Positions 3,422 to 16,813 of a stretch of DNA of 64,000 nucleotides are shown piece by piece. The stretch is from positions 60,408 through 124,407 of the forward strand of contig CACIDF010000001.1 of the NCBI GenBank assembly GCA_902585365.1, written 5' to 3'. This stretch comes from an uncultured Pelagibacteraceae bacterium. Its GTDB lineage: Bacteria; Pseudomonadota; Alphaproteobacteria; Pelagibacterales; Pelagibacteraceae. The notes under the pieces are model-generated. The model had not been told where the DNA came from. It made no database searches and was given only the letters and a program-made list of their open reading frames with translations. Position 1 is the first letter of the stretch. Every line of letters starts with the position of its first letter. The position numbers and the translations under genes were made by a program.

Positions 3422-4162
3422 TTAAGAAAATAAACTTCCGTATCCTTTAATAGAATTGTTTTTATTTATATTTTCTAAAGTTTCCCAAATTAATGCTTGA
3501 TTACTAGACAAAACAGTCATACTTAATTTTTTTTCTAATTTTTCAATTATATTTAACACTGGTAATGAGGTGCAAGATACAAACAAAGCCTCAGCATCTT
3601 TATGATCTATTTTAGATAAAATTTCAAACAATTGATCCTGATCTACTTTTCCAATATCAACGTCAGACTCAATATCAAAATAGGTGTTTGAAGAAATTTT
3701 AAAATGATTTTTCTTAAAAAAATTAACAACATCATCATTTACACTTTTTATATAAGGGGTTACTATTGAAATCTTTTTAATATTTTTTTTCTTTAAAGCA
3801 TTTAATGCTGCTGTACTTGGAGCAGTTACCAAGGCATCTGGTTTTGCAATATTAATCTTTTTTTTAATACTATCATAGCCCGAAACTATTGTTCCCGATG
3901 TGCAGCCATAAACAACACAATCAATTTTCTCTCCAGGGAGAATATTTTCAGTAACAGATGTAATATTATTTGTCATTTTTTTAAGATTGTCAGCAGTGAC
4001 AGGATTGTAATTAGTTATTCTATTTACAAATAGATCAGCGGATATACTGCTAAAAACTTTTAAAAAATCTTTTTCGATCATCACATCTGTTGCTAATACA
4101 ATTAGACCTACTCTTGGATTTGTTTTTTTTATAAATTTGGGTTTAATTTTTTTTGAATCCAT
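3422..4162 (-). CDS. Asp/Glu racemase / maleate isomerase family protein, EutA-like
   Basis: VGLIVLATD, YGCTSG, VTPY, FVSCTSL (two catalytic Cys), SSNQA motifs. Confidence 0.8.
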   Translation of the reverse strand: MDSKKIKPKFIKKTNPRVGLIVLATDVMIEKDFLKVFSSISADLFVNRITNYNPVTADNLKKMTNNITSVTENILPGEKIDCVVYGCTSGTIVSGYDSIKKKINIAKPDALVTAPSTAALNALKKKNIKKISIVTPYIKSVNDDVVNFFKKNHFKISSNTYFDIESDVDIGKVDQDQLFEILSKIDHKDAEALFVSCTSLPVLNIIEKLEKKLSMTVLSSNQALIWETLENINKNNSIKGYGSLFS

Positions 4163-4199
4163 ATTAATAAGTTATATTATATTTAAAGATACCAATTTT

Positions 4200-5414
4200 A
4201 TGACTATGTTAACAGACAAAATTAATACCACTTTTAACAAATTTTTTATTTACTTATTTATTTATATTTTGTTATTTGTGCCAAATTGTTTTGCTGAGAA
4301 AAAAAAAGAAATCAAAGTAGGAATTTTATTAGGTTTCACAGGCGCAGTTGAAAGCTTAACACCATCGATGGCTGACTCAGCTGAATTAGCTTTTAATGAG
4401 ATAAAAAATAACGAATTAACTTTTAAAATATTAAGATCTGATACAGCTTGTAATAATATGAATTTAGCAAAAAATGCCACCAACAAACTTGTTAACGACG
4501 GTGTTAGTGCCATTATTGGTGCTGCCTGTCCAAATATTACTAGAGAAATTGCAAATGAAATTTCAATTCCTAAAGAAATATTAACAATAACACCAGCTGA
4601 TAATTCTAATGAATTAACAAATTTAAAGGATAACGGTTATGTATTTAGAACAACGCCGTCAAAAATAAGAGGAAGTCAAATATTAGCCGATATTACAAAT
4701 GACCGTGGAATAAAAAAATTAGCTATCTCTTACAGTAATGATGAAGACTATAAAAGGTTTGCAATGGCCTATAAAGATGCGCTAGATGAAAACAATATAA
4801 AAATATCAACTATGTTATCACACAATAAAAATACCAATGACTACTCAAAACACATATCTACTTTAGGTGCTGCTGGAGGAGACGCTTTAGCTATAATAAG
4901 TGATACAGATTTAGGGGGCGATCAAGTTATTAAATCTATGTTAGATACAGGAATGTTTAATGTATTTATCCTCTCAGAAAATATGATAAATGAGAAAACA
5001 ATAAACAATTTTAAAGAAAAAAATTTAAAAAGATCATTTGGATACGTTTTAGGGCTCTCAAATTTAGGCTCAGAAAAATTTATAAATCTTGCTCAAAAAT
5101 CAGGAATAGATCCGTTTAGTCCATATACTAGTGAGTCTTATGATGCTGCAGCAGTTATAATATTATCAAATTTTGCAAAAATTTATTCAGAGATAAAATC
5201 TATAAATGATATTATTTATCTTATATCTAATAAACCTGGAATTAAAATTTATCCTGGTGAAATAAATAAAGCTATAAATTTTATTAAAGAAGGTAAATTA
5301 ATTAACTATGAGGGTGCGACAGGTGTAGAATTTGATAAATTTGGTGACACATTTGGATCATTTGTAGAAGTTGACTTAAAAAAAGGGAAATTAAAAAGTA
5401 AAAAAATAAGATAA
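4200..5414 (+). CDS. Orphan LivK/LivJ-type (periplasmic binding protein type 1) ABC substrate-binding protein, divergent
   Basis: Hydrophobic signal, IKVGILLGFTG, D-T-A-C, GYVFRT-P, YDAAA, YEGATG-V-FD motifs. Start moved from 4137 to ATG 4200 to avoid overlap with the divergent gene. Confidence 0.8.
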   Translation: MTMLTDKINTTFNKFFIYLFIYILLFVPNCFAEKKKEIKVGILLGFTGAVESLTPSMADSAELAFNEIKNNELTFKILRSDTACNNMNLAKNATNKLVNDGVSAIIGAACPNITREIANEISIPKEILTITPADNSNELTNLKDNGYVFRTTPSKIRGSQILADITNDRGIKKLAISYSNDEDYKRFAMAYKDALDENNIKISTMLSHNKNTNDYSKHISTLGAAGGDALAIISDTDLGGDQVIKSMLDTGMFNVFILSENMINEKTINNFKEKNLKRSFGYVLGLSNLGSEKFINLAQKSGIDPFSPYTSESYDAAAVIILSNFAKIYSEIKSINDIIYLISNKPGIKIYPGEINKAINFIKEGKLINYEGATGVEFDKFGDTFGSFVEVDLKKGKLKSKKIR

Positions 5415-5417
5415 ATA

Positions 5418-6194
5418 TTAATAGCTAAATTTACTCGAGGGATACTTTTTGTTTTTTACTTCTTTGATAAATTTTTTTACAGCTGACTTAATATGTTTTC
5501 TAATATTGCTAAAACTTTTCACGAATTTAATAGATGTTAAATTTAAACCTATTAAATCATCAGTAACTAAAACTTGACCATCACAATTAACAGAGGAGCC
5601 AATTCCAATGGTAGGGATTTTTAACTCTTTAGTAATTCTTTTCGCTAAATTTGTTTCAATACACTCAAGCACAATTGAAAATACACCACTTTTTTGAAGT
5701 AAGAGTGCTTCATTAATCAATTTTTTTCTCTCAGAAATAGTTTTACCTTTATATCTGAATTTGCCTCTATGGCTTTGGGGTAAAATTCCTAAATGCCCCA
5801 TAACATTTATTTTGTTTTTTCTAAGATGATCAATAATTTTTATTATTTTTTTTCCTCCCTCAACCTTAATAGCATCTGCTCGTGAGTACTTGATTATTTT
5901 TTTTGCGTTTTTTAGCGCTTCCGATTTATTTCGATAAGTGTTATATGGCATATCTACAACCATCAAACTTTTTTTGATACCTTGTCTGACACTTTTTGAA
6001 TGTTCTATCATCATGTTTAAATTTACTTTTTTGGTTGTGTCAAAAGAGTACAAAACAGAACCTAAAGAGTCCCCTACTAAAATTATATCAGTAAATTTAT
6101 CTAAAATTTCTGAAAAATTTTTAGAATATGAAGTTAAACAAATTATTTTGTTTTTATTTTTTTTTTTTAATATTTGTTTGATTTTTAAATTCAT
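5418..6194 (-). CDS. panB: 3-methyl-2-oxobutanoate hydroxymethyltransferase
   Basis: LVGDSLG, VDMPY, AIKVEGG, GHLGILPQ, IPTIGIG, DGQVLV motifs. Confidence 0.93.
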   Translation of the reverse strand: MNLKIKQILKKKNKNKIICLTSYSKNFSEILDKFTDIILVGDSLGSVLYSFDTTKKVNLNMMIEHSKSVRQGIKKSLMVVDMPYNTYRNKSEALKNAKKIIKYSRADAIKVEGGKKIIKIIDHLRKNKINVMGHLGILPQSHRGKFRYKGKTISERKKLINEALLLQKSGVFSIVLECIETNLAKRITKELKIPTIGIGSSVNCDGQVLVTDDLIGLNLTSIKFVKSFSNIRKHIKSAVKKFIKEVKNKKYPSSKFSY

Positions 6195-7138
6195 ATAATT
6201 CTATTAAGAATATTGTTAGTTTCCATAGTATATAATTTATACAAATTTTCAGCATCCTTGAGCTTAATTTCCTTAAATTTTATTTTTGAACCAGGTGTAA
6301 TTTGAACAATTTTATCGTAATCAGCACTTATTACTACTCCTATTTTAGGATAACCTCCAATAGTCCCGTGATCAGATAATAAAATAATAGGCTGTCCATC
6401 AGCTGGCACTTGTATAGTGCCCTTTATTAAACCTTCAGATTTAATGTTTGTGCTTTTAATGTTATTTAACTTATTTCCCTCTAGTCTCATACCCATTCTA
6501 TCTGTAAGCTTTGTTACTGTGTAATATTTTGAAAAAAAGTCTTTTATTGATTGCTCGGAAAAAAAATCAAAATTTGTTCCTTTAATTACTCTTATAAATT
6601 CAATCTTTGAGTCTAAAAAATTTAGTTTTCTATGTGGGGAATTGCTTGGGTCATTAAGTAAAATCTTTTGACCGTCTATTAATTTATTGCCATTATTAGG
6701 TCCAACTTTTGCTCTTACTGTAGTTGAAAAACTATCCCAAACTTTATCCAATTTAAAACCACCATTTATACAAAAGTAACCATAGACTGACTTATTTGTA
6801 GATATGATATCTATAATATCGCCGTTATCTATTTTAATTGTTTTATAACACTCGCCATTCTCTTGAGAGTTATTATCTTTATATATTTTGAAATTAACAC
6901 TGCCAGTAATAACAATGTTTCTTGGTAGTCCAAAATATTTTAGGGATGGTCCTTGAAATGCAAATTCAATAGCTGCATCATTTTTATTATTATTAATAAG
7001 TTTATTAGCAATTAAATAATTTCTTTTATCCATTGATCCACTAAACGGTAAACCAATATGGTAAAGATTTTTTCTTCCATGGTCTTGAAAAGTTGAATTT
7101 AATCCTGCTCTTATTACTTTAAAATAATCATTTTTCAT
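6191..7138 (-). CDS. pxpC: 5-oxoprolinase subunit C (KipA/AHS2 family)
   Basis: TFQDHGR, DRMGMRL, GTIQVPADGQPIILL, TIGGYPKIG motifs; coupled to pxpB. Confidence 0.88.
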   Translation of the reverse strand: MKNDYFKVIRAGLNSTFQDHGRKNLYHIGLPFSGSMDKRNYLIANKLINNNKNDAAIEFAFQGPSLKYFGLPRNIVITGSVNFKIYKDNNSQENGECYKTIKIDNGDIIDIISTNKSVYGYFCINGGFKLDKVWDSFSTTVRAKVGPNNGNKLIDGQKILLNDPSNSPHRKLNFLDSKIEFIRVIKGTNFDFFSEQSIKDFFSKYYTVTKLTDRMGMRLEGNKLNNIKSTNIKSEGLIKGTIQVPADGQPIILLSDHGTIGGYPKIGVVISADYDKIVQITPGSKIKFKEIKLKDAENLYKLYTMETNNILNRII

Positions 7139-7805
7139 AAAATTTTTCGTATTCCTTTTTTTTAATTTCGTAGAATGTTACCTGATCGCCGGGGCTAATT
7201 AAATTTGGTTTTTTCACATTTGTAGAATTAAAAATTTCTAATGGAGTTTTACCAATTATGTTCCAGCCCCCTGGGCTTTCAAAAGTATAAATATTGCAAA
7301 ATTGACCTGTCAATCCAACTGAGCCTTTTGGAACTTTTACTCTTGGAGTTTCCAATCTATCTAATTGAATTTTTTCGTCTATATCCCCCAGAAATGGCAT
7401 GCCAGCAATAAATCCTGTCATATAACAAAAATAATTTTTATTTAAAAATAAATTTATTATTTCACTTTTAGATTTTTGAAATTTTTCCTCAATCCTTTCT
7501 ATATCTATTGAAAATTCATCATCACAACATATTGGAATATTAATTTTTTGAAACCGGTTTTCAATTTTCACATTTAATTTCAAATCTAATACTACTTTTT
7601 TTAAATCCTCATAATTAGTTTCATTTAGATCAAAAGAGATTATTAATTTATTATAAGAAGGCGATAAATTAGTAATACCTTTTATATTTTTTTCTTTTAA
7701 TGCCATAAAATATTTAATAACTTTTGAATTTATTTCTTTATTAACATCGCTTCCAAAATCACAATAGATTGCTGCGTCACCAAGATTGACTATATTTTTA
7801 ATCAT
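7128..7805 (-). CDS. pxpB: 5-oxoprolinase subunit B (KipI/AHS1 family)
   Basis: LGDAA, GFIAGMPFLG, TPRVKVPKGSVG, IYTFESPGGWNIIGKTP motifs. Confidence 0.9.
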   Translation of the reverse strand: MIKNIVNLGDAAIYCDFGSDVNKEINSKVIKYFMALKEKNIKGITNLSPSYNKLIISFDLNETNYEDLKKVVLDLKLNVKIENRFQKINIPICCDDEFSIDIERIEEKFQKSKSEIINLFLNKNYFCYMTGFIAGMPFLGDIDEKIQLDRLETPRVKVPKGSVGLTGQFCNIYTFESPGGWNIIGKTPLEIFNSTNVKKPNLISPGDQVTFYEIKKKEYEKFYEK

Positions 7806-7832
7806 ACAATGTTATACTTCATGATAAATTTT

Positions 7833-8606
7833 ATGGAAATTAATATTAATTGTGATTTAGGAGAGAAATCTGTACATCATTCTACCAAGCATGATCCAGA
7901 TCTACTTAAGATTGTTAACTCAGCTAATATTGCTTGTGGATTTCATGCTGGTGACGAACAAACTATGATAAATACGATAAAAATTTCTAAAAATAATAAC
8001 GTCAGTATTGGAGCACATCCCTCTTTTAATGATCCACAAAATTTTGGAAGAAAAAGACACCATTTGTCTGAGAAAGATTTAAAAAAACTTATAATTGACC
8101 AATATGAAGTATTGCAGAATTTAGCAATAAAACTCGGAACAAAAGTTACCCACATTAAACCTCATGGTGCTTTAAATAATATGGCATGTGAGGATTTGCA
8201 TTTATCAAAAATATTAGCTGAAACTATTTATAAGATTGATAAAAATCTCATTTATTTAGTACCAACTGGATCAAAAATGGAAATGGCTGCTAAAAAATTT
8301 GATATGAAAATAGCATGTGAAATATTTGCCGACAGAAATTATGAGGATGATGGAAACCTTGTTTCAAGAAATAAGGATAATGCTATTATAACAGATCCAG
8401 AGAAATGTAAAAAACACGTTCTCGATATGGTTGAAAATCAATCTATCAACTGCATGTCTGGTAAGAAAATAAAATGTGAAATAGACTCTGTTTGTATCCA
8501 TGGGGATAATGTAGAATCTTTAGAAACTGCTAAACAAATAAAAAAAGTTCTTGAAGAAAATAGTATTTACCTTAAATCATTGACTAATTTAAAAAAGTTT
8601 ATTTAA
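7833..8606 (+). CDS. pxpA: 5-oxoprolinase subunit A (LamB/YcsF family)
   Basis: INCDLGE, SANIACGFHAGD, IGAHPS, HIKPHGALNN, EIFADRNY, CIHGD motifs; start placed at ATG 7833. Confidence 0.92.
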   Translation: MEININCDLGEKSVHHSTKHDPDLLKIVNSANIACGFHAGDEQTMINTIKISKNNNVSIGAHPSFNDPQNFGRKRHHLSEKDLKKLIIDQYEVLQNLAIKLGTKVTHIKPHGALNNMACEDLHLSKILAETIYKIDKNLIYLVPTGSKMEMAAKKFDMKIACEIFADRNYEDDGNLVSRNKDNAIITDPEKCKKHVLDMVENQSINCMSGKKIKCEIDSVCIHGDNVESLETAKQIKKVLEENSIYLKSLTNLKKFI

Positions 8607-8610
8607 AATT

Positions 8611-9123
8611 ATGAAAAAAATAATATTAATAATATTTGTTACTCTTTATAGTACGCTAATATTTGCTGCAGGTCCCGCTCCTACAGATAATAAAATGAAA
8701 ACTACTGCAAGCACGGGAGTTAAAGCTGCAACTAAATATGATATTGGAGCGAAATGGGTTTCTAAGGCAAAAAAATTCGAAAAGAAAAAAAAACCAACTA
8801 AAGCTGAAAATGCTTACAAAAAAGCGATCAAAAGTTTATTAGAGGCTAACTCGCAAGATCCAGGAAATCCAGACACGCTAAATCTTTTAGGTTTTTCTCA
8901 CAGAAAAATTGGTGACTACAATAATGCTGAAATTTATTACGCGATGGGATTAGAAATTGATCCAAAGCACATAGGTATTAATGAATATATGGGTGAACTT
9001 TTTGTAGCTACAAACAGAATAGATGAAGCAAAAAAAAGGTTGGCTGTTTTAGAAGGTTGTGATTGCAAAGAATACGATGAACTTAAACAAGTAATAGATG
9101 GAACTAAGCAGTCAAAATATTAG
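8611..9123 (+). CDS. Exported tetratricopeptide-repeat protein
   Basis: Signal peptide; TPR-like PDTLNLLGFSHRKIGDYNNAEIYYAMGLEIDPKH and NEYMGELF; C-terminal CDC. Confidence 0.75.
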   Translation: MKKIILIIFVTLYSTLIFAAGPAPTDNKMKTTASTGVKAATKYDIGAKWVSKAKKFEKKKKPTKAENAYKKAIKSLLEANSQDPGNPDTLNLLGFSHRKIGDYNNAEIYYAMGLEIDPKHIGINEYMGELFVATNRIDEAKKRLAVLEGCDCKEYDELKQVIDGTKQSKY

Positions 9124-10430
9124 TTGATCTTTTTTATCATTTGATCTGGTAACCACATTACAATTTCAGGAAAAATAATTAATATTATTGTAGCAAGCAC
9201 CATTAACAAAAATAATGGAAAAGCACTTTTTGCAATAAAACCCATATCCTTTCCCGCCATTCCCTGAAGAACAAACAAATTAAATCCAACAGGAGGAGTA
9301 ATTTGTGCCATTTCGACTACAACTACTAGAAATATTCCAAACCAAATCATATCAAAACCTGCTTGTCTAATCATAGGTTCTATAATTGCCATTGTTAAAA
9401 CTACAGCTGATATTCCATCTAAAAACATTCCTAGAATTATATAAAATATCATCAAAACAAAAATTAGAATATAAGGTGAAAGTTCAAGACTATTTATCCA
9501 TAAAGCTAAATTTCTTGGCAAACCTGTAAATCCCATTGAGAGAGATAAAAAAGCAGACCCGGCTAATATGAAAGAAATCATGCAGGATGTTTTTGTAGCT
9601 CCTAATAATGAGCTTTTAAAAGTGCTCCAACTTAAACTTTTTTGAAAATAGGAAAGAATTAATGCACCAACAACTCCTAATGATGCAGCCTCTGTGGCGG
9701 TTGCAATTCCAGTATAGATAGAGCCAATAACTGAAAGGATTAAAATTATTACAGGAATTAATTGGCCAGATCTTTTAATTTTATCAATAAAACTATATTG
9801 ATTAACAATATTTGGCATTTGTTTTTTATTAAACAAAGACCATAAAATCACGTAGCTCATAAAAATTAATGCAATCATTATTCCTGGTATAATTCCAGCA
9901 ACAAACAGTTTTGCAATAGACTCTTGGACCGTTACACCATAAATAATCAAAATTATAGAAGGTGGAATTAATAGTCCTAAGGTCCCAGATCCCGCAAGAC
10001 TTCCTAGTAAAATTTTTTCGGGATAATTTCTTTTTCTAAGCTCTGGAATTGACATTTTTCCAACTGTAGCGACAGTAGCAGCTGATGACCCTGATATAGC
10101 AGCGAATAGTGCGCACCCAACGACATTGACGTGAATTAATCCGCCAGGTAGTTTTTGCATCCAAGGTGATAATCCCTCAAATAAATTCTCTGATAATTTT
10201 GTTCTAAATAAAATCTCTCCCATCCAAACAAATAATGGTAAGGCTGTTAAAGTCCACGAAGAGGATGTCCCCCAAATAGTTGTTGCCATTGCATCTCCAA
10301 CTGGTCTTGAAGTAAATAAAGTCATTGCGATTGTGGAAACACCAATCATGCTTAAAGCAACCCAAACGCCAGTGCTTAGGAATAACAAAAGAACTGAAAT
10401 AAAAAATACACTAAGCAATATTTCAGTCAT
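9120..10430 (-). CDS. dctM: TRAP transporter large permease
   Basis: Multi-TM; LTALPLF, FAAISGSSAAT, GTLGLLIPPSI, ATATEAA, ITPPVGFNLFV motifs. Confidence 0.93.
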   Translation of the reverse strand: MTEILLSVFFISVLLLFLSTGVWVALSMIGVSTIAMTLFTSRPVGDAMATTIWGTSSSWTLTALPLFVWMGEILFRTKLSENLFEGLSPWMQKLPGGLIHVNVVGCALFAAISGSSAATVATVGKMSIPELRKRNYPEKILLGSLAGSGTLGLLIPPSIILIIYGVTVQESIAKLFVAGIIPGIMIALIFMSYVILWSLFNKKQMPNIVNQYSFIDKIKRSGQLIPVIILILSVIGSIYTGIATATEAASLGVVGALILSYFQKSLSWSTFKSSLLGATKTSCMISFILAGSAFLSLSMGFTGLPRNLALWINSLELSPYILIFVLMIFYIILGMFLDGISAVVLTMAIIEPMIRQAGFDMIWFGIFLVVVVEMAQITPPVGFNLFVLQGMAGKDMGFIAKSAFPLFLLMVLATIILIIFPEIVMWLPDQMIKKIN

Positions 10431-10908
10431 TTTTATGAAAATATTTTAATAGTTGATGTGAAATACATATAAAAAGAATAATAGAGCCTAGGGCCAGAGG
10501 TGATTGAGGAATCCATATTAATATTTCATCAGCGCCCTCACTTCGCTCTTTAAATTTAAAAGAAATAACAAGCATTTTTACAAAATAAAATGATATATAG
10601 CCTGAAAATATCGAAGCTACTGTTAGACACCATATTTCAAAGATCTTTCTAAATTTCTTATTTAGTTTTTCAATGAATAATGTAATTCTTATATGTCCTC
10701 CCTCGCCGAATGTATAAGCTAAAGCGAAGAACGTAGAGGCGGCCATACAATAACCTGAATATTCGGATAATCCGCGAATATAGAAACCAAATATTCTAGA
10801 GGAGATACCTAACAATATAAAAATAGCTATGAAAATTAGAAATATAGCAGCGATGTACCCAGAAAATTTATAGATTCTTTCTAGATAAAAATTGATTTTA
10901 TTAAGCAT
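10423..10908 (-). CDS. dctQ: TRAP transporter small permease
   Basis: Four TM helices, GGHIRI motif, located between dctP and dctM. Confidence 0.9.
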   Translation of the reverse strand: MLNKINFYLERIYKFSGYIAAIFLIFIAIFILLGISSRIFGFYIRGLSEYSGYCMAASTFFALAYTFGEGGHIRITLFIEKLNKKFRKIFEIWCLTVASIFSGYISFYFVKMLVISFKFKERSEGADEILIWIPQSPLALGSIILFICISHQLLKYFHKND

Positions 10909-10913
10909 ATGAT

Positions 10914-10943
10914 AAAAGGCCGTTAAAATATCAACGGCCTTTT
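10914..10943 (-). terminator. Hairpin between dctP and dctQ (intrinsic terminator/attenuator or mRNA-stabilising stem)
   Basis: Perfect 11-bp inverted repeat AAAAGGCCGTT-(8 nt)-AACGGCCTTTT beginning about 11 nt after the dctP stop. Confidence 0.7.
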
Positions 10944-10954
10944 AGAATAATTAT

Positions 10955-11923
10955 TTAATAAGCTGATAAAACAGATTGACCTCTAGCACCAGCTTTCTTT
11001 GTCCACTCAGATGCCATTTGAGATCCAACTTTTTCAAAATGTTGCTTCAATGCAGAATTAACTTTACCAACACTCATTCCAGCATCAGCTAAAGCCTTCT
11101 TATCATTCTTGTTTCCCATTTTTGAAAGTTGCCACCCTTTTCTTTCAGCAAGAGCCGCTTCTTTCATAATTAAATCTTGAGTTTCTTTATCTAATTTGTT
11201 CCAGGCTTTTTTATTTGCAATTATCATATTTTTTGGAAACCACGCAGCTATATCATAAAAATACTTAACACCGTTTTCCCAAATCTTACTGTTCTTTCCA
11301 GTTGTTGGTGAAGTAATCATACTTTCAACAGCTCCTGTAGAAAATGCCTGAGATATTTCTGCTGCTTCAATTTTAGTTGGGGCCATACCAGTCAGCTCAG
11401 CAATTCTAATTGTAGCACCATTATAAGCTCTAAACTTTAATCCTTTTAAATCTGCAACGCTATTTATCTCTTTTTTAGAATATAAACCTTGAGCAGGCCA
11501 AGGCACTGCATATAAAAATACTAGACCTTTCGCATCTAAACTTTTTGCTATTTCAGCTTTTGATGCTTTATATAATTTCATAGCATCTGTGTAGGATGTA
11601 GCTAAAAAAGGTAAAGAGTCGATCTCAAGTAAAGGATCTTCCTTCCCTAATGCCGACATAAATCTTTCACCAATAGGGGCTTGTCCTGTTCTTACTGCTC
11701 TAAAAATTTCTCCACCTTTGAATAATGATCCACCCGGATGTGTGACTATAGTTAATTTGCCACCACTTTTTTCAGTTACATTTTTTGCAAATTCAGTTGC
11801 ATTTGCAGAATGAAAATTACCCGCACCATAAGCTAACGCCATATCCCATTTTTCAGCATATGATGCATTCGAAAGTAAAAGTAGTGATGTTAATATTGAA
11901 ATAAAGTATTTTATTATTCTCAT
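10955..11923 (-). CDS. dctP: TRAP transporter substrate-binding protein, resembling the DctP6/DctP7 pyroglutamate-binding subfamily
   Basis: Signal peptide; KWDMALAYGAGNFHS, HPGGSLFKG, DSLPFLATSY, DLKGLKFR motifs; strong RBS GAGGAGGTGAA before the ATG. Confidence 0.9.
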   Translation of the reverse strand: MRIIKYFISILTSLLLLSNASYAEKWDMALAYGAGNFHSANATEFAKNVTEKSGGKLTIVTHPGGSLFKGGEIFRAVRTGQAPIGERFMSALGKEDPLLEIDSLPFLATSYTDAMKLYKASKAEIAKSLDAKGLVFLYAVPWPAQGLYSKKEINSVADLKGLKFRAYNGATIRIAELTGMAPTKIEAAEISQAFSTGAVESMITSPTTGKNSKIWENGVKYFYDIAAWFPKNMIIANKKAWNKLDKETQDLIMKEAALAERKGWQLSKMGNKNDKKALADAGMSVGKVNSALKQHFEKVGSQMASEWTKKAGARGQSVLSAY

Positions 11924-12038
11924 TTCACCTCCTCTTTTTAAAAATATATTTGATTATTAATTTAATGTTAAATCAATAAAAAAATTGTCTACTTTTAATT
12001 GAAAAATCCTAATATTTATTTATTATCTAAGAATTCCA

Positions 12039-12665
12039 ATGGAGCAATCACTATTTTTTGAGCAATCTTTAATTCTTTTGCAAATAATATTCATTGATAT
12101 TATTTTGGCTGCAGATAACGCAATAATAATTGGTTTAATAGCTGCTAACTTTGTTCCAAAACATAGAAGACAAATTATACTTTGGGGTGTAGCAGGTGCA
12201 TTAATTTTCAAAGTAATTTTTGCAATTTTTGCAACTTATTTATTCAAGTTCTATTTTATTAAAATTTTAGGTGGGCTACTATTAATTTGGATAGTTTATG
12301 ATTTAAGAAAAGACTTATTTGAAATTAAGAAAGTAAAATCACCAACTAAAGTTTCTAAAGAGCCCTCATACATACAAAGTGTTTATAAAGTTTTATTCGC
12401 AGATATAACAATCAGTTTTGATAATGTTATTGGTGTTGTTGGGGCTTCCAAAGGTTATTTTGGTTTTATGATTTTTGGTTTAGTTTTGTCAGTTATTTTA
12501 ACTGGTGCGCTTGCAACTTATCTTGCAAACTATATTCAAAAACATTTATGGATTGCTTATGTGGGTTTAGCATTTATTTTACTTGTTGCTATTCAATTAG
12601 TCATAGGTGGACTAGTAGATTTAGAAATTTTACGCGTGAATGAGGAATTTAAGAAATATTTTTAA
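12039..12665 (+). CDS. TerC family membrane protein (YjbE-like)
   Basis: IDIILAADNAIII and ADITISFDNVIGV motifs, multiple TM helices. Confidence 0.85.
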   Translation: MEQSLFFEQSLILLQIIFIDIILAADNAIIIGLIAANFVPKHRRQIILWGVAGALIFKVIFAIFATYLFKFYFIKILGGLLLIWIVYDLRKDLFEIKKVKSPTKVSKEPSYIQSVYKVLFADITISFDNVIGVVGASKGYFGFMIFGLVLSVILTGALATYLANYIQKHLWIAYVGLAFILLVAIQLVIGGLVDLEILRVNEEFKKYF

Positions 12666-12674
12666 ATATTAAAT

Positions 12675-13367
12675 ATGAAAAAGTTATTTATAATTATAGT
12701 ATTAATTTTTTCAACACAGTTAGCACAAAGTCAGGAATGCAATTTAAATCCAGAGCGAGGGAGTAAAAATTATATTATTGGCTATGGATCCTTAATGGAT
12801 AAAGAGTCTAGAATTAGAACAAATAAATCAGCTTTTGTAGTTAAACCTATTTTAATTAAAGGTTTTGAGAGAACTTGGGGTCTTCAAGGGGGGATGTACA
12901 AAATTACTTTTTTGACAATCATTAAAAAAGAAAACTCATCTGTTAATGCAGTTTATTACCCAGTTTCAATAAAGGACTTGAATAAAACAGATAATAGAGA
13001 GAGTGGCTATTGTAGAGTAAAAGTTGAAGGTAAGGACTTAAGTTTCTATGGAAAAAAAATTAAAACTAAAAATAAAAACTTTTGGGTTTATGCAGCTAAT
13101 CCTGGAAAAATAAAAAAACCAACTAATAGTCATCCAATTGTTCAATCATATGTCGATTTATTTATAGGTGGTTGTTTTCAAATTAAAGAGAGATATAAAA
13201 TAAATGAATTTCCGAAACAATGTGTAGAGACAACTACTGAATGGTCAAAGCACTGGGTAAATGATAGAGTGCATGCTAGAAGGCCGTTCTTAGTGCCAAA
13301 TTTTTATAAAATAGATAATCTTTTATCAAATTATTTTAATTATTATTTAGATAATAAATACCAGTAA
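12675..13367 (+). CDS. Exported gamma-glutamylcyclotransferase-fold protein
   Basis: Signal peptide; IIGYGSLM, GFERTW, D-N-R-E-S-G-Y (catalytic Glu position), FWVY motifs of the GGCT/ChaC/AIG2 fold. Confidence 0.75.
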   Translation: MKKLFIIIVLIFSTQLAQSQECNLNPERGSKNYIIGYGSLMDKESRIRTNKSAFVVKPILIKGFERTWGLQGGMYKITFLTIIKKENSSVNAVYYPVSIKDLNKTDNRESGYCRVKVEGKDLSFYGKKIKTKNKNFWVYAANPGKIKKPTNSHPIVQSYVDLFIGGCFQIKERYKINEFPKQCVETTTEWSKHWVNDRVHARRPFLVPNFYKIDNLLSNYFNYYLDNKYQ

Positions 13368-14003
13368 TCACATTTTATACTCAAAATTTTGAGTGGTTTC
13401 GTTAACTCCAATCTCTACGGCTCCGTTACTTAAATGAAATTTCCTAGCCATATCAGTAAGTGGTGATAGTGTTACTAATCTATTTAAATGATTTGTTTTT
13501 TTTATTTTTTTGAAAACTTCTTTTACAATTAATCTTCCACCACCTCTTTTTTTTGACCAAACAGTGTATGCAATTGCAATTTGACCAACTTTAAAATCTC
13601 TATTGATACTCTGGAGATAAGCATCTTTACTCATCATATCTAGCTCTTCTACAGTTTTCGGAATGCTATTTGTAAATGCAAAACACATCACCGCATGTAT
13701 TTCATCTTGATACTTCACACCATAAATTTTCCTTCCAAAACTTGTTCTAAACTCATTATCTAATTCTGGCCTTACTGGATCCTCACTAGTATTGCAGTTT
13801 GGCAACTCAATAATTTCTGCACCTTTTACCCAGTCAAAAAAATTTTTTACCGATTTTCCAATATCAATTTTTTTACCTTTAATGGAAGTATTAAATTTTT
13901 CAGATATTAAATCTCTTTTTTTTGTAATTGAGCGTTTGAATATTTTGCCTTTTCTTTTTAAAGCAACTTTTATTTTTCTTTTTAATAGTTTTTTTTTATT
14001 CAT
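13368..14003 (-). CDS. Hypothetical protein with basic N-terminus and GNAT/malonyl-CoA-decarboxylase-like C-domain
   Basis: 211-aa ORF abutting its neighbour; AIAYTVWSKKRGGGRLIV...LVTLSP...ARKFHLSNGA pattern. Confidence 0.6.
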   Translation of the reverse strand: MNKKKLLKRKIKVALKRKGKIFKRSITKKRDLISEKFNTSIKGKKIDIGKSVKNFFDWVKGAEIIELPNCNTSEDPVRPELDNEFRTSFGRKIYGVKYQDEIHAVMCFAFTNSIPKTVEELDMMSKDAYLQSINRDFKVGQIAIAYTVWSKKRGGGRLIVKEVFKKIKKTNHLNRLVTLSPLTDMARKFHLSNGAVEIGVNETTQNFEYKM

Positions 14004-14029
14004 TTTTTAAATTTATAAACTAAATTATG

Positions 14030-14806
14030 TTAATTAGATTGTGACTTATTTAACCTTTTTATTATTCTATTAGATGTTTTTTCAAGTAATTTATAAAAAC
14101 CTGCTTTTCGCAAATCTTTAACTGCTTGCTCGTTCAAACCACCGGGTGTTTGAGATTCTCTAACTAGTCTTTTTAGATTTTTGTTATGATTAAAAGCGTC
14201 TTCTGATAACGCAAGGAATAGAGATGATATATATTTTTGTGCATTTTCTTTTTTTATTCCTCTCTTAATTAACCAATTTGATAACGAGTATAAGATTTCA
14301 TAAAAAGGAGCCATCATAGCAGAAGTTGTCCAAAAATTTAGTGATAACTTCTCATTATTGATTTCAACTGTAGATCCTAATTTATCAAAAAACTTTTTAA
14401 CCTTACTATTTGGTGGATAAATTGGAACAGGACCTTTGCATAATGCAATTGGTGGTAATGGTATGGCTCTAATAATATTTGATTTTAATCCTGTAATTAT
14501 TTTTAATTGATTTAAATTAATTGTTGAAATGAAACTAATTATCATCTTATTTTTATTGAATTTTAAATTCCTTAAAATTTTATTTGCTACAGTTGGTGTT
14601 ACTGCAAGAAATACCCAGTCAGATCTATTAATAATGTCTTGATTTTTCTTAATTATTGTAATTTTTTTACTTTTAAATTTTAAAATTCTTGAAATTTTTT
14701 TATTTCTTTCAGATACAAATATTTTTGTAACTTTTAATTTCGAATTTATTACACCTGTTACAACCGCTTTTGTTATCTGTCCCGTGCCTATAAAACCTAT
14801 TTTCAT
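14030..14806 (-). CDS. proC: Pyrroline-5-carboxylate reductase family protein (divergent)
   Basis: KIGFIGTGQI Rossmann motif, SDWVFLAV, C-terminal SQTPGGLNEQ dimerisation motif. Confidence 0.72.
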   Translation of the reverse strand: MKIGFIGTGQITKAVVTGVINSKLKVTKIFVSERNKKISRILKFKSKKITIIKKNQDIINRSDWVFLAVTPTVANKILRNLKFNKNKMIISFISTINLNQLKIITGLKSNIIRAIPLPPIALCKGPVPIYPPNSKVKKFFDKLGSTVEINNEKLSLNFWTTSAMMAPFYEILYSLSNWLIKRGIKKENAQKYISSLFLALSEDAFNHNKNLKRLVRESQTPGGLNEQAVKDLRKAGFYKLLEKTSNRIIKRLNKSQSN

Positions 14807-14824
14807 AATAAATTAATATAGATG

Positions 14825-15439
14825 TTAATAATTTTGTGTAAATCCAATAAAAATTGCAATTAAGATCAATACACACGCCGAAATTGTGTTTATTACTCTT
14901 GGATTTGCCTTGATCCATGTCAAAAGTTTTTTAGCTAAAATTGCATAGCCAATTAGTGAAAGAAAATCTAATACCATGTATGTAATTATAAGAATTACAA
15001 ATTGGAAAATATAATTTTCATTAAAATTTATAAACTGTGGAAAGATTAATGGAAAAAATATCCAAGCTTTTGGACTTGTTCCAGCTACAATAAATCCATC
15101 TTTAAAAAAAGATAACAATTTTTTTGATTTTGTTGATGCTTTGTTAAAATTTGTTGGTCTAGACTTATAGATATCGTAAGACAGATAAAATAAATAAGCT
15201 ACACCAAACCATTTCAAAATATTTAATGTTTCACTATTATTAGCAATGAAGGATCCTATAAAAAATATTACTAAAGTAGCTTGTATTAGATTTGCAGTAA
15301 TATCACCTAGTGCAATCCAAATACAATTTCTTGTTCCATAATTCATAGCATATGAAATAATTACAATTCTTGGTGTGCCTGGAGTTATAAATAAAAAAAG
15401 TATAATTTGTAAAAAGAGAAAATAATCTAAGGGGAGCAT
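14825..15439 (-). CDS. LysE/RhtB family amino-acid exporter
   Basis: ITPGTP, LKWFGVAYL, F-DGF-V--TSPKA motifs, about six TM helices. Confidence 0.88.
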   Translation of the reverse strand: MLPLDYFLFLQIILFLFITPGTPRIVIISYAMNYGTRNCIWIALGDITANLIQATLVIFFIGSFIANNSETLNILKWFGVAYLFYLSYDIYKSRPTNFNKASTKSKKLLSFFKDGFIVAGTSPKAWIFFPLIFPQFINFNENYIFQFVILIITYMVLDFLSLIGYAILAKKLLTWIKANPRVINTISACVLILIAIFIGFTQNY

Positions 15440-15443
15440 TTTT

Positions 15444-15494
15444 GGGATAGTCCTAAAAAACCGGGAGCTAAAGATGGCTAGATAGGACTATCTT
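15444..15494. promoter_or_regulatory. Structured intergenic RNA element candidate upstream of lysE/rhtB
   Basis: Perfect 10-bp inverted repeat GATAGTCCTA (15446-15455) / TAGGACTATC (15483-15492) enclosing a GC-richer loop, 6 nt from the lysE ATG. Confidence 0.5.
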
Positions 15495-15557
15495 ATCTAT
15501 AATAACATAGTCAGTAAAAATTGCATTATTCATTTTTTTGATATTTATTAAGAATTT

Positions 15558-15851
15558 ATGAAAAAAAGTCGCAGACCCCTCACAAAGGTTAAAAATCCTG
15601 AACCCAAAGTGGGCAGTGAGAGCTGGGTGATATGGGCTGCTTGGGCAGACCGAATAACTTTCGAAGACATCAAATCAAAAACAGGTTTATCAGAGGGCGA
15701 TGTTATAAAAATTATGAGAAGATCACTTAAACCTTCGTCATTTAGGCTTTGGAGAAAGAGGGCTAAAGGTCAAAGTATAAAGCACAGAAAAAAATTTGAA
15801 GAAACAAGAAAAGAAATAAGAAGAAAAATTAAAAAAAATGATTATATATAA
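15558..15851 (+). CDS. TIGR03643/DUF2805 family protein
   Basis: AW-DR--FE-I----GL-E--VI-IMR--LKPSSFRLWRKR motif. Confidence 0.85.
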   Translation: MKKSRRPLTKVKNPEPKVGSESWVIWAAWADRITFEDIKSKTGLSEGDVIKIMRRSLKPSSFRLWRKRAKGQSIKHRKKFEETRKEIRRKIKKNDYI

Positions 15852-15854
15852 ATA

Positions 15855-16109
15855 ATGAAAAAAATTACCATTTATACTGGTCCGGTTTGCAATTATTGCG
15901 ATGCTGCGAAAAGATTATTAAAGAGAAATAATGCGTCATATTCTGAAATTAATATTGCAGAAGTTGATGGAGCATTAAATGAGATGCTTAAGAAAACAAA
16001 CGGTAAAAGAACTATTCCACAAATTTTTTTTGATGATCAGCACATCGGTGGATATGAAGAAATCAGAGCTTTAGAAAAAGATAATAAGCTACAAGACCTT
16101 TTAAAATAA
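15855..16109 (+). CDS. grxC: Glutaredoxin 3
   Basis: CNYC active site, RTIPQIF, HIGG motifs. Confidence 0.9.
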   Translation: MKKITIYTGPVCNYCDAAKRLLKRNNASYSEINIAEVDGALNEMLKKTNGKRTIPQIFFDDQHIGGYEEIRALEKDNKLQDLLK

Positions 16110-16442
16110 AACGTAATAAATAATTAAAAATATAAGTGTATATTCAAAAAACCTTTTAAAATTTAATATTTGTTTTTCGTTAAACTTCTGATTAATTATT
16201 TTTCTTAAGAAATAAAATCCTAAATTAACAATTATCAATCCAATAATTAATCCTATTAAAACAAATTTAATTTGGAAGTTTTTATAACCAAAATAAATTG
16301 CGGCTAAAAAAGTAAACCAAGATACTTTGGAAATAAATATTTTAAATAAAAGACCAGCTTTTCTACTAAAAATAGATTGAGTTTTAATTATAGAATAAGA
16401 CCAAATAATCCCAATTAAAAAAGTAAAATATTTTATAATCAT
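16101..16442 (-). CDS. Hypothetical membrane protein
   Basis: 113-aa hydrophobic ORF with ATGA overlap to msrB. Confidence 0.65.
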   Translation of the reverse strand: MIIKYFTFLIGIIWSYSIIKTQSIFSRKAGLLFKIFISKVSWFTFLAAIYFGYKNFQIKFVLIGLIIGLIIVNLGFYFLRKIINQKFNEKQILNFKRFFEYTLIFLIIYYVLF

Positions 16443-16813
16443 TTTAATTTTTTAGGTTTAAATACTAAACATAAACCATTATTACAATATCTTTTACCTG
16501 TTGGTTGAGGACCATCATCAAATATATGTCCATGATGCCCACCACAGCTCTTACAATGATACTCGGTTCTTGCGTAACCAACATGGTGATCTGTTTTTGT
16601 TTCAAATACATCAGGCAGAGATTCGAAGAACGATGGCCAACCAGAACCACTTTCGTATTTTTTTTTTGACTCAAAAAGTTTTACATCGCAATTTGCACAA
16701 TGATAATTGCCTTCTCTTTTTTCAAAATTTAATTCACTAGATCCAGGTCTTTCTGTTCCCTCTTCAAATAAAATTAATTTTTGTTCTGAGGATAAATTTG
16801 GATTTTTTTTCAT
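16439..16813 (-). CDS. msrB: Peptide-methionine (R)-S-oxide reductase
   Basis: GTERP, two CxxC, SGSGWPSF, GHIFDDGP, RYCNNG motifs; start at 16813 gives an ATGA overlap with the upstream gene. Confidence 0.93.
   Translation of the reverse strand: MKKNPNLSSEQKLILFEEGTERPGSSELNFEKREGNYHCANCDVKLFESKKKYESGSGWPSFFESLPDVFETKTDHHVGYARTEYHCKSCGGHHGHIFDDGPQPTGKRYCNNGLCLVFKPKKLK

Follow-up and report, generated by a model that had tools for sequence, protein, structure and literature searches.

The window analysed in this study, a 64,000-nucleotide stretch of a Pelagibacteraceae genome, carries a pyroglutamate module conserved in SAR11 (Pelagibacterales) next to a gene for a predicted exported gamma-glutamyl cyclotransferase (GGCT). 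We think it probable that the GGCT was acquired separately from the module, and that the adjacency of the two is no evidence for a dedicated system. On this reading, the module would consist of terC, dctPQM, an exported TPR gene, pxpA and pxpBC. The original prediction had joined GGCT, the TRAP transporter and PxpABC into one scavenging system. The DctP subfamily, the linkage to pxp and the exported GGCT were supported. The dedicated three-part system was not: the adjacency occurs in one subclade only, GGCT persists after deletion of the TRAP genes, and GGCT is also found in SAR11 genomes without a DctP6-like protein, two of which lack pxpA as well.

Each gene named in the prediction for positions 4200-13367 (pxpC, pxpB, pxpA, dctM, dctQ, dctP and the GGCT-fold protein with a signal peptide) was found with open reading frames, Pfam and NCBIfam (Table 1). 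The region also contains four genes that the prediction had left out: a LivK-type binding protein, panB, an exported TPR protein and a TerC/YjbE membrane protein. There are four transcription units, pxpCB-panB (-), pxpA-TPR (+), dctPQM (-) and terC-GGCT (+). The pxp, TRAP and GGCT genes do not form a single operon. The pxpB gene overlaps the start of pxpC, and pxpA is divergent from pxpB. The terC-GGCT unit and dctP diverge from a common intergenic region of 115 bp. GGCT starts 9 nt past the stop of terC, which probably supplies its promoter, and no riboswitch was found upstream of terC.

Table 1. Features of the locus, with positions in the window
Feature	Position	Strand	Length	Support
LivK-type binding protein	4137-5414			
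panB	5418-6194			
pxpC, 5-oxoprolinase subunit C	6191..7138	-	315 aa	Pfam CT_A_B 232 bits; NCBIfam TIGR00724 246.1 bits (cut-off 230.2)
pxpB, 5-oxoprolinase subunit B	7128..7805	-	225 aa	Pfam CT_C_D 189 bits; NCBIfam TIGR00370 133.8 bits (slightly below cut-off 145.55)
pxpA, 5-oxoprolinase subunit A	7809..8606	+	265 aa	Pfam LamB_YcsF 288 bits; NCBIfam NF003814 299.3 bits (cut-off 226)
Exported TPR protein	8611..9123	+	170 aa	TPR_1 and TPR_2 matches; signal-peptide-like N-terminus
dctM, TRAP large permease	9120..10430	-	436 aa	Pfam DctM 285.8 bits; TIGR00786 380.5 bits (cut-off 268)
dctQ, TRAP small permease	10423..10908	-	161 aa	Pfam DctQ 64.4 bits
dctP, TRAP solute-binding protein, signal peptide	10955..11923	-	322 aa	DctP6/DctP7/6WGM subfamily by PDB matches
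terC/yjbE-family membrane protein	12039..12665	+	208 aa	Pfam TerC 139.9 bits; TIGR03717 153.4 bits
Predicted exported gamma-glutamyl cyclotransferase, Francisella ChaC (FTN_0599) type	12675..13367	+	230 aa	NF049903 161.8 bits; predicted fold

The N-terminus of DctP reads EKWDMALAYGAGNFH, exactly as quoted before, and the proposed resemblance to Bordetella DctP6 and DctP7 was confirmed. The closest solved relatives, all in full-length alignments, were PDB 2PFZ (E 5e-82), 6WGM (1e-79) and 2PFY (2e-77). The following match among TRAP binding proteins reached only 1e-17, a gap of 60 orders. The protein belongs to the DctP6/DctP7/6WGM subfamily (E 1e-77 to 1e-82) and, from these alignments, is a predicted pyroglutamate binder. 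The carboxylate-binding arginine of TRAP proteins is kept, in KWRAY in Bordetella pertussis DctP6 (2PFZ) and in KFRAY in the SAR11 DctP. 6WGM, a marine metagenome protein, presumably carries bound pyroglutamate, going by its PDB title. Crystals of Bordetella DctP6 and DctP7 are described as containing 5-oxoproline, with a Kd of 0.3 uM for DctP7; the oxoprolinase nearby is given there as the eukaryotic type, whereas the SAR11 locus has PxpABC (PMC13274462).

The synteny of pxpABC and TRAP expected across Pelagibacterales was tight. Of the 50 genomes with this TRAP dctP, 48 have pxpA at a distance of about 3.3 kb from it, which is far beyond chance. The TPR gene stands between pxpA and dctM in every TRAP-positive locus examined and is a conserved member of the module. 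terC adjoins dctP in every TRAP-positive locus with sequence reaching that far (28/30) and is its ancestral divergent neighbour. TRAP plus PxpABC thus forms a conserved SAR11 pyroglutamate module, whose gene set is solid and already published.

Pyroglutamate uptake with pxpABC is not new in SAR11. Clifton et al. (2024, Nature; PMC11485210) described L-pyroglutamate uptake with pxpABC, the ABC binding protein SAR11_0655 (PDB 8WCH) being encoded beside SAR11_0662-0664. For SAR11 strains without the ABC system, an "alternative transporter" is mentioned in that paper, and 2PFY, 2PFZ and 6WGM are cited. As described there, the system resembles the present locus in organism group and in having a high-affinity periplasmic pyroglutamate binder adjoining pxpABC, with glutamate as the end product, but the importer is ABC there and TRAP here. 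The LivK-type binding protein in the window does not belong to the 8WCH type. In Corynebacterium glutamicum, a 5-oxoproline importer is likewise clustered with pxpABC (pxpTABC) and permits growth on 5-oxoproline as carbon and nitrogen source. That importer, however, is PxpT, a single-component permease controlled by the regulator PxpR (PMC13274462, 2026), and neither a regulator gene nor PxpT was seen in the window.

The N-terminus of GGCT, MKKLFIIIVLIFSTQLAQS followed by QEC, was exactly as first quoted, and so were the YGSLM and DNRESGY motifs. The protein has a predicted signal peptide (residues 1-19), the YGSL loop (37-40), a glutamate at the catalytic position (109) and cysteines at 22, 113, 167 and 183. 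Pfam support was weak (GGACT 23.6 bits, cut-off 22.8; no match to ChaC). The NCBIfam NF049903 score (E 2e-47) is far under the naming cut-off of 480 bits. The assignment is firm because this score is joined by the predicted fold: AF2 gave a confident model (pLDDT 91.3) with the GGCT fold, and the best Foldseek matches of this model were human GGCT, ChaC2 and yeast ChaC. Within the family, no variation occurs at G38, S39, L40, D106, R108, E109 and Y112. Of 84 leader-bearing relatives, 73 have all four cysteines, versus 2 of 42 leaderless ones, so by alignment the cysteines co-vary with the predicted export leader. This GGCT-fold protein thus retains its catalytic motifs intact, and its export is very probable.

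Human GGCT and ChaC1/ChaC2 are cytosolic, lack the four cysteines and share <20% identity with the SAR11 GGCT. The prediction had called GGCT/ChaC enzymes normally cytoplasmic, which passes over the periplasmic Francisella ChaC (FTN_0599 / FTL_1548; NF049903), a DsbA-dependent enzyme that converts exogenous glutathione to 5-oxoproline and Cys-Gly (Ramsey et al. 2020, PMC7340319). Given this precedent, a GGCT in the periplasm would be nothing new. The SAR11 protein is 40% identical to Francisella adeliensis ChaC over 186 residues, and both are GGCT-fold proteins with an export signal, all four cysteines, the YGSL loop and the RE-x-x-Y motif. Francisella ChaC is membrane-anchored with a linker of about 50 residues, whereas the signal peptide of the SAR11 GGCT is short and looks cleavable. 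GGT and DptA, a Cys-Gly transporter, are further present in Francisella; members of these two families were not found in the SAR11 clade. A link to 5-oxoproline import is not described in Francisella. Human GGCT (PDB 2PN7, 3CRY) shares this fold (target-normalised Foldseek TM 0.68-0.70), and its YGS(L/N) loop and catalytic E98 align with the SAR11 protein, E98 with E109. As in the gamma-glutamyl cycle, 5-oxoproline would be formed and its ring then opened by an oxoprolinase, but here the cyclotransferase would act extracytoplasmically, and PxpABC is the oxoprolinase.

Among 201 Pelagibacterales genomes, 9 carry GGCT, 50 the TRAP system and 116 pxpA, and GGCT is missing from 46 of the 50 TRAP-positive genomes. 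Just one Pelagibacter subclade has GGCT next to the TRAP genes; there, 12 of 17 species-level genomes keep the full arrangement, and this adjacency traces to one evolutionary event. Four subclade relatives keep terC-GGCT and have cleanly lost dctMQP; in a fifth, GGCT is flanked by secB and dnaQ. A DctP6-like gene was found in none of these five. A DctP6-like protein is also missing from five genomes with GGCT that belong to other SAR11 genera, and two of them, each at least 99% complete, lack pxpA as well. In two genomes, G001 and G023, an 8WCH-type ABC system adjoins pxpABC more than 270 kb away from GGCT. At 63 loci of other lineages (Francisella, Burkholderiales, Nitrotoga, cyanobacteria, Legionella and others), the available flank of up to 10 kb contained neither pxp nor a DctP6-like gene. 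A lack of co-occurrence with pxp and TRAP had been named beforehand as speaking against the proposal, and this is largely what the other SAR11 genera and outside loci showed.

This distribution makes it unlikely that the genes were co-selected as a dedicated system, with a periplasmic GGCT making 5-oxoproline for TRAP and PxpABC opening the ring, even though GGCT is one gene away from dctP across the shared divergent region and most of the subclade retains the arrangement. The chemistry would fit such a system, as GGCT obligatorily yields 5-oxoproline, in the compartment of DctP itself. So would the apparent recent sweep of the gene, which suggests an advantage, and the account of pyroglutamate in Clifton et al. 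(2024; PMC11485210) as an unexpected ligand whose marine source is not known. GGT, POT-family and family-5 (Dpp/Opp) peptide-binding transporters were not found in the GGCT subclade genomes, which also favours it.

We consider it quite improbable that the role of GGCT has nothing to do with pyroglutamate supply and is instead to release Cys-Gly or cysteine-containing fragments from glutathione as reduced sulfur, or to cleave other gamma-glutamyl or related amides, with 5-oxoproline as a by-product. Francisella ChaC does enable growth with glutathione as sole cysteine source (PMC7340319), and the family is widespread (505 representatives at E<=1e-10) with pxp/TRAP not a conserved neighbour. In HIMB114-type genomes, a P-loop gene overlaps GGCT, and genes close by encode a PLP enzyme of Cys/Met metabolism and a pyridine nucleotide-disulfide oxidoreductase; pxpA was not found in 2 of the 3 such genomes searched. 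However, the missing POT-family and family-5 importers, likewise undetected in HIMB114, leave no evident uptake route for Cys-Gly, and GGCT neighbourhoods elsewhere are heterogeneous, without a consistent sulfur signal.

In the explanation we favour, a conserved module with a separately acquired GGCT, periplasmic DctP would bind L-pyroglutamate (5-oxoproline), DctQM would import it on an ion gradient, and PxpABC would open the ring with ATP to give glutamate. A Francisella ChaC-type GGCT would have been acquired recently in one Pelagibacter subclade, just downstream of terC, and recombination would then have spread it between the species of that subclade. Once exported by Sec and folded with two disulfides, the enzyme would most likely cleave external gamma-glutamyl compounds in the periplasm. 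Glutathione or gamma-Glu-amino acids are candidate substrates, and their cleavage would yield 5-oxoproline along with an amino acid or dipeptide as the leaving group. 5-Oxoproline is the sole product with an obvious importer, because GGT and the two peptide transporter families are absent from these genomes. Its opportunistic salvage by the neighbouring TRAP/Pxp route is chemically plausible in this clade, while GGCT would be independent of that route. The joint pathway is plausible and no firmer, because GGCT appears to have joined this locus late and within a single narrow lineage, and its link to TRAP/Pxp is weak.

The slot between terC and a 211-aa gene varies by lineage and holds GGCT, an MFS transporter or panB. 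Counting identical residues only, the codon identity of GGCT to the window was 82-87% in all 14 relatives, and that of its immediate neighbours was 60-73% in the more diverged genomes. GGCT appears to have spread recently. Codon bias, instead of recency, could partly account for the high codon identity. Selection could still explain the adjacency: by our own rough estimate, random insertion would fall beside the nine-gene module in about 1% of trials.

The genes that the original prediction joined into one scavenging system are all in the sequence: an exported gamma-glutamyl cyclotransferase-fold protein (GGCT), a DctP6/7-type TRAP transporter and the prokaryotic 5-oxoprolinase PxpABC. The motifs quoted for them (the signal peptide, YGSLM, DNRESGY and the KWDM...NFH start of DctP) are also present. 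The window is AT-rich (G+C content of 21-36% per 2-kb window) and belongs to a 0.9-Mb genome, 74% complete, of the Pelagibacter genus of SAR11. The region is organized as four transcription units and not as a single operon. Promoter and terminator scans gave the same counts as shuffled controls. An Rfam scan of 4000-16500 detected no Mn riboswitch or other RNA element upstream of terC-GGCT.

Features of the pyroglutamate and GGCT region (window positions)
Feature	Position	Strand	Remarks
LivK-type binding protein	4137-5414	+	
panB	5418-6194	-	
pxpC	6191-7138	-	CT_A_B
pxpB	7128-7805	-	CT_C_D
pxpA	7809-8606	+	LamB/YcsF
Exported TPR protein	8611-9123	+	170 aa
dctM	9120-10430	-	286 bits
dctQ	10423-10908	-	64 bits
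dctP	10955-11923	-	138 bits
TerC/YjbE membrane protein (terC)	12039-12665	+	
GGCT-like protein	12675-13367	+	230 residues; start 9 nt past terC stop
211-aa protein	13368-14003	-	convergent with GGCT, zero intergenic space
lysE/rhtB-family gene	14825-15439		
rhtB sRNA motif (RF01814)	15434-15510	-	full-length match

PxpA, PxpB and PxpC are clustered at 6191-8606, with Pfam domain scores of 189-288 bits. Among the NCBIfam models, PxpA scored 299.3 bits against NF003814 (cut-off 226), and PxpC scored 246.1 bits against TIGR00724 (cut-off 230.2) and 187.5 bits against the equivalog NF045499 (cut-off 500). PxpB scored 133.8 bits against TIGR00370 (cut-off 145.55). The TRAP set is complete according to Pfam, with DctP, DctQ and DctM contiguous on the minus strand (9120-11923). 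The closest solved relatives of DctP, all aligned over the full length, are Bordetella pertussis DctP6 (2PFZ, 5e-82), the metagenomic protein 6WGM (1e-79) and DctP7 (2PFY, 2e-77), and the next solved TRAP binding protein follows only at 1e-17. An arginine is conserved where LKGLKFRAY of DctP is aligned with MKGLKWRAY of 2PFZ and QGIKFRSY of 6WGM. In TRAP binding proteins generally, the arginine at this position contacts the carboxylate of the ligand. The structures of DctP6 and DctP7 hold 5-oxoproline, and the Kd of DctP7 is 0.3 uM (PMC13274462).

A sample of 201 Pelagibacterales genomes was surveyed. Close DctP homologues (E<=1e-60) were found in 50 of them and pxpA in 116, a tally that takes in one unpublished genome (G111) used for no other claim. 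When the coordinates of both searches were compared, pxpA lay approximately 3.3 kb from dctP in 48 of the 50 dctP genomes, with dctQM and the TPR gene in between. The two exceptions were a contig edge and a distant paralogue of 50% identity. Comparative genomics thus gives strong support to a predicted module for pyroglutamate import and ring opening in SAR11. Indirectly, the pxp neighbourhood conserved in these 48 genomes also favours L-pyroglutamate as the putative high-affinity ligand of DctP. Clifton et al. 2024 showed for the ABC binding protein SAR11_0655 (PDB 8WCH), encoded beside pxpABC, a Kd for L-pyroglutamate of less than 5 nM. The same paper states that other SAR11 have an alternative transporter and cites 2PFY, 2PFZ and 6WGM; judging from these PDB codes, the alternative appears to be the TRAP type present here. 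Pyroglutamate use through TRAP and PxpABC is a real route, but one known before and not new.

Several neighbouring features were also recorded. The exported TPR protein, whose gene follows pxpA after a 4-nt gap, carries a signal peptide and, C-terminally, a CDC motif. All TRAP-positive loci examined have it between pxpA and dctM, and it is retained where dctMQP has been lost. This pairs an exported protein with a cytoplasmic oxoprolinase subunit. In two GGCT-carrying genomes of other SAR11 genera, G023 (locus L131, 4185-8826) and G001 (locus L132, 9716-14322), a five-gene ABC system flanks pxpABC. The G023 binding protein matched 8WCH with an E value of 1.4e-173 and represents the published ABC-type pyroglutamate system. 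The LivK-type protein of the window was considered as such a binder and rejected, as its best PDB matches were LivJ-type (E 1e-7) and it had no real similarity to the G023 protein. It is an orphan beside panB-pxpCB, with 42-97% identity among close relatives.

The only Pfam match of the GGCT-like protein was a marginal one to GGACT (PF06094, 23.6 bits), and the canonical ChaC family PF04752 did not match it. Against NCBIfam NF049903, the Francisella FTN_0599 ChaC family, it scored 161.8 bits (E 2e-47; naming cut-off 480), so the NCBI rule would not give it the name ChaC. It is a clear homologue all the same: ChaC of Francisella adeliensis, recovered in a representative search, was 40% identical over 186 residues (E 1e-46). 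A PDB search with the single sequence returned nothing relevant; the protein was linked to GGCT only by the family profile and a fold search. The AF2 model (pLDDT 91.3) matched human GGCT (3CRY/2RBH), ChaC2 (6KY1), yeast ChaC (5HWK) and GGACT with a Foldseek probability of 1.00. In an alignment of 32 relatives, residues G38, S39, L40, D106, R108, E109, Y112, R114, C167 and C183 were invariant. When a profile of this alignment was matched to human GGCT, YGSL fell on YGSN, and E109 took the position of the catalytic E98. The near-invariance extends further, to G38, S39 and L40 of the YGSL loop and to E109 across 126 full-length family representatives. The alignments and the model are evidence for an intact catalytic apparatus.

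GGCT begins with a charged MKK, followed by 13 residues of hydrophobic core and a site resembling a cleavage site, AQS|Q. An N-terminal hydrophobic leader was borne by 84 of the 126 representatives, and 42 were leaderless. Four cysteines, C22, C113, C167 and C183, are conserved in the relatives of GGCT, C22 and C113 at >=90% in the 32-sequence alignment. All four were present in 73/84 leader forms versus 2/42 leaderless forms, and C183 was replaced by Phe in 35/42 of the latter. The leader forms without C22 also had no C113 (3/3 in the 32-sequence alignment). The simplest reading of these co-loss patterns, the sole basis for the pairing, is that there are probably two export-linked disulfides, C22-C113 and C167-C183. 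From the catalytic motifs, the fold and the leader-linked cysteine patterns, both export and cyclotransferase chemistry appear well supported by sequence. The location of the protein had been presented as a novelty, since such enzymes are normally cytoplasmic. This premise falls because Francisella ChaC is already periplasmic; it is membrane-anchored and DsbA-dependent, and together with GGT it lets the cells grow when glutathione is their only source of cysteine (Ramsey et al. 2020). The putatively exported GGCT is real, and it is a further member of the Francisella ChaC kind.

GGCT was found in only 9 of the 201 genomes. Four of these are the genome of the window and three close relatives, in which GGCT is 93-96% identical and the whole neighbourhood is syntenic. 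The other five belong to three other genera and include HIMB114, and none encodes a protein of the DctP6/DctP7/6WGM subfamily (DctP6-like). Two of the five, both >=99% complete, have no pxpA; in the remaining three, pxpA is elsewhere, on a separate contig in G160 and, within the pxp-ABC cluster, more than 270 kb from GGCT in G001 and G023. Their GGCT neighbours differ by lineage (P-loop protein, Cys/Met PLP enzyme, SDR, SelO, MOSC, SRAP, BT1 transporter). There was no enrichment of pxpA, which occurred in 7/9 GGCT-positive genomes versus 115/140 family-wide. In HIMB114-type genomes (loci L044, 8965-10457; L045; L046), the GGCT start overlaps by 4 nt the stop of a gene for a 269-aa P-loop NTPase-like protein, and genes for a Cys/Met-metabolism PLP enzyme and for a pyridine nucleotide-disulfide oxidoreductase are no more than 5 kb away. 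A sulfur/thiol context for GGCT in these genomes is possible.

The wider scan took one genome per species and compared 80 loci, 17 of them from the window's own Pelagibacter subclade. In 12 of the 17, GGCT immediately adjoined terC and the TRAP genes, and the 9 of these 12 with contigs reaching far enough all had pxpABC as well. Four loci (L057, L062, L064 and L066) had the order TPR-terC-GGCT, with dctMQP cleanly missing and about 65 nt between TPR and terC (in L057 at ~9260-9330). In these loci terC-GGCT was kept in 4/4, and pxpABC in the 3/3 with enough contig. In the last of the 17, GGCT was located between secB and dnaQ. No DctP6-like gene was found in these five TRAP-less genomes of 0.9-1.1 Mb, whose completeness was not given. 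The TRAP system itself is a presence/absence variant.

The other 63 loci came from other SAR11, Francisella, Burkholderiales, Nitrotoga, cyanobacteria, Legionella and Magnetospirillum, and none (0/63) had a pxp or DctP6-like gene within flanks of up to 10 kb. A conserved neighbour of the GGCT family across taxa was sought and rejected, as the sole recurrent cluster consisted of generic ABC ATPases of varied length. Beyond these, each lineage had neighbours of its own, for example cysS, a radical-SAM/SPASM gene, an ABC-2 exporter and a PPIase in Nitrotoga. The original prediction of a dedicated GGCT, TRAP and PxpABC system itself named missing co-occurrence of GGCT homologues with pxp/TRAP as speaking against it, and this is largely what was found. 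Adjacency was confined to one subclade and did not recur in independent lineages, and GGCT was kept without TRAP in 5 of the 17 subclade genomes. Comparative genomics does not support a dedicated three-part system.

We considered how GGCT came to its place. Of 30 TRAP-positive loci, 28 have enough sequence, and in all of these dctP has terC as its divergent neighbour. In the window, a 115-bp intergenic region is shared by terC-GGCT and dctP. terC is followed by panB in most genomes, by an MFS_1 transporter in G193 and by GGCT in the subclade; because the gene after terC differs between genomes, GGCT sits in a variable slot. In G193, the closest GGCT-negative relative, the slot (locus L136, 6470-7648, equal to 12675-13367 of the window) holds a 392-aa MFS_1 protein between terC and the 211-aa gene. 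The search for a known glutathione or pyroglutamate carrier in this protein gave only generic MFS_1 matches. Where the amino acids are identical, GGCT shared 82-87% of its codons with the window in 14/14 relatives compared (loci L051-L066 and L101); in the more diverged genomes this identity was 60-73% for terC and the 211-aa gene and 55-75% for the pxp genes. This suggests that GGCT is younger than its carrier species and was passed between them by recombination, in what looks like a gene-specific sweep in the subclade. Because of this spread, the GGCT-TRAP adjacency counts as one event. By a rough estimate, random insertion next to the nine-gene module has a chance of ~1%, and at least one such adjacency ~5%, given that GGCT is found in at least five different contexts within the order. 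This calculation is post hoc and is suggestive at most.

An opportunistic coupling of GGCT with TRAP and Pxp in the subclade is plausible. 5-Oxoproline is the obligatory product of GGCT chemistry. GGT, a POT-family transporter, a family-5 peptide-binding protein and canonical ChaC were not found in the clade genomes (one of them 99% complete) or in HIMB114; the products with obvious importers are therefore 5-oxoproline and, if the substrate is gamma-Glu-X, the free amino acid. The 5-oxoproline would be released in the same compartment as DctP. In the furthest-reaching reading, a recently swept, exported cyclotransferase of the subclade would make periplasmic 5-oxoproline from external gamma-glutamyl compounds, with glutathione and gamma-Glu-amino acids that phytoplankton release as candidate substrates, and the adjacent TRAP, of presumed nanomolar affinity, and PxpABC would capture it. 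Cells would thus make their own pyroglutamate supply and gain the leaving amino acid, and an extracytoplasmic half of a gamma-glutamyl cycle would be used for foraging. We consider this reading rather unlikely, and likewise a selected functional link between GGCT and TRAP/Pxp.

No paper in the literature searched proposes that a periplasmic GGCT supplies an importer of 5-oxoproline. To Clifton et al. 2024, pyroglutamate among the substrates was a surprise, with no known marine source. If GGCT feeds TRAP and Pxp, a source would be named, gamma-glutamyl peptides including glutathione, and a step of periplasmic pre-processing would be added in an organism believed to depend almost entirely on direct uptake. 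As the evidence stands, the importer and the oxoprolinase are known and the exported GGCT has a characterised Francisella relative. What is left is modest: a predicted periplasmic GGCT in SAR11 that is flexible and seems to have spread recently.

Two further features lie beyond GGCT. The 211-aa protein has a lysine-rich N-terminus, and a paralogue of 67% identity adjoins hslU in one subclade locus (L061). It matched no family except, in its homologues, a sub-threshold malonyl-CoA decarboxylase C-terminal (GNAT-like) domain. The sole Rfam match within 4000-16500 was the rhtB motif (79.7 bits, E 6e-15; gathering score 55), immediately upstream of the lysE/rhtB-family gene. Because RF01814 matches there, the GC-enriched stem-loop noticed earlier as abutting lysE is this known motif.
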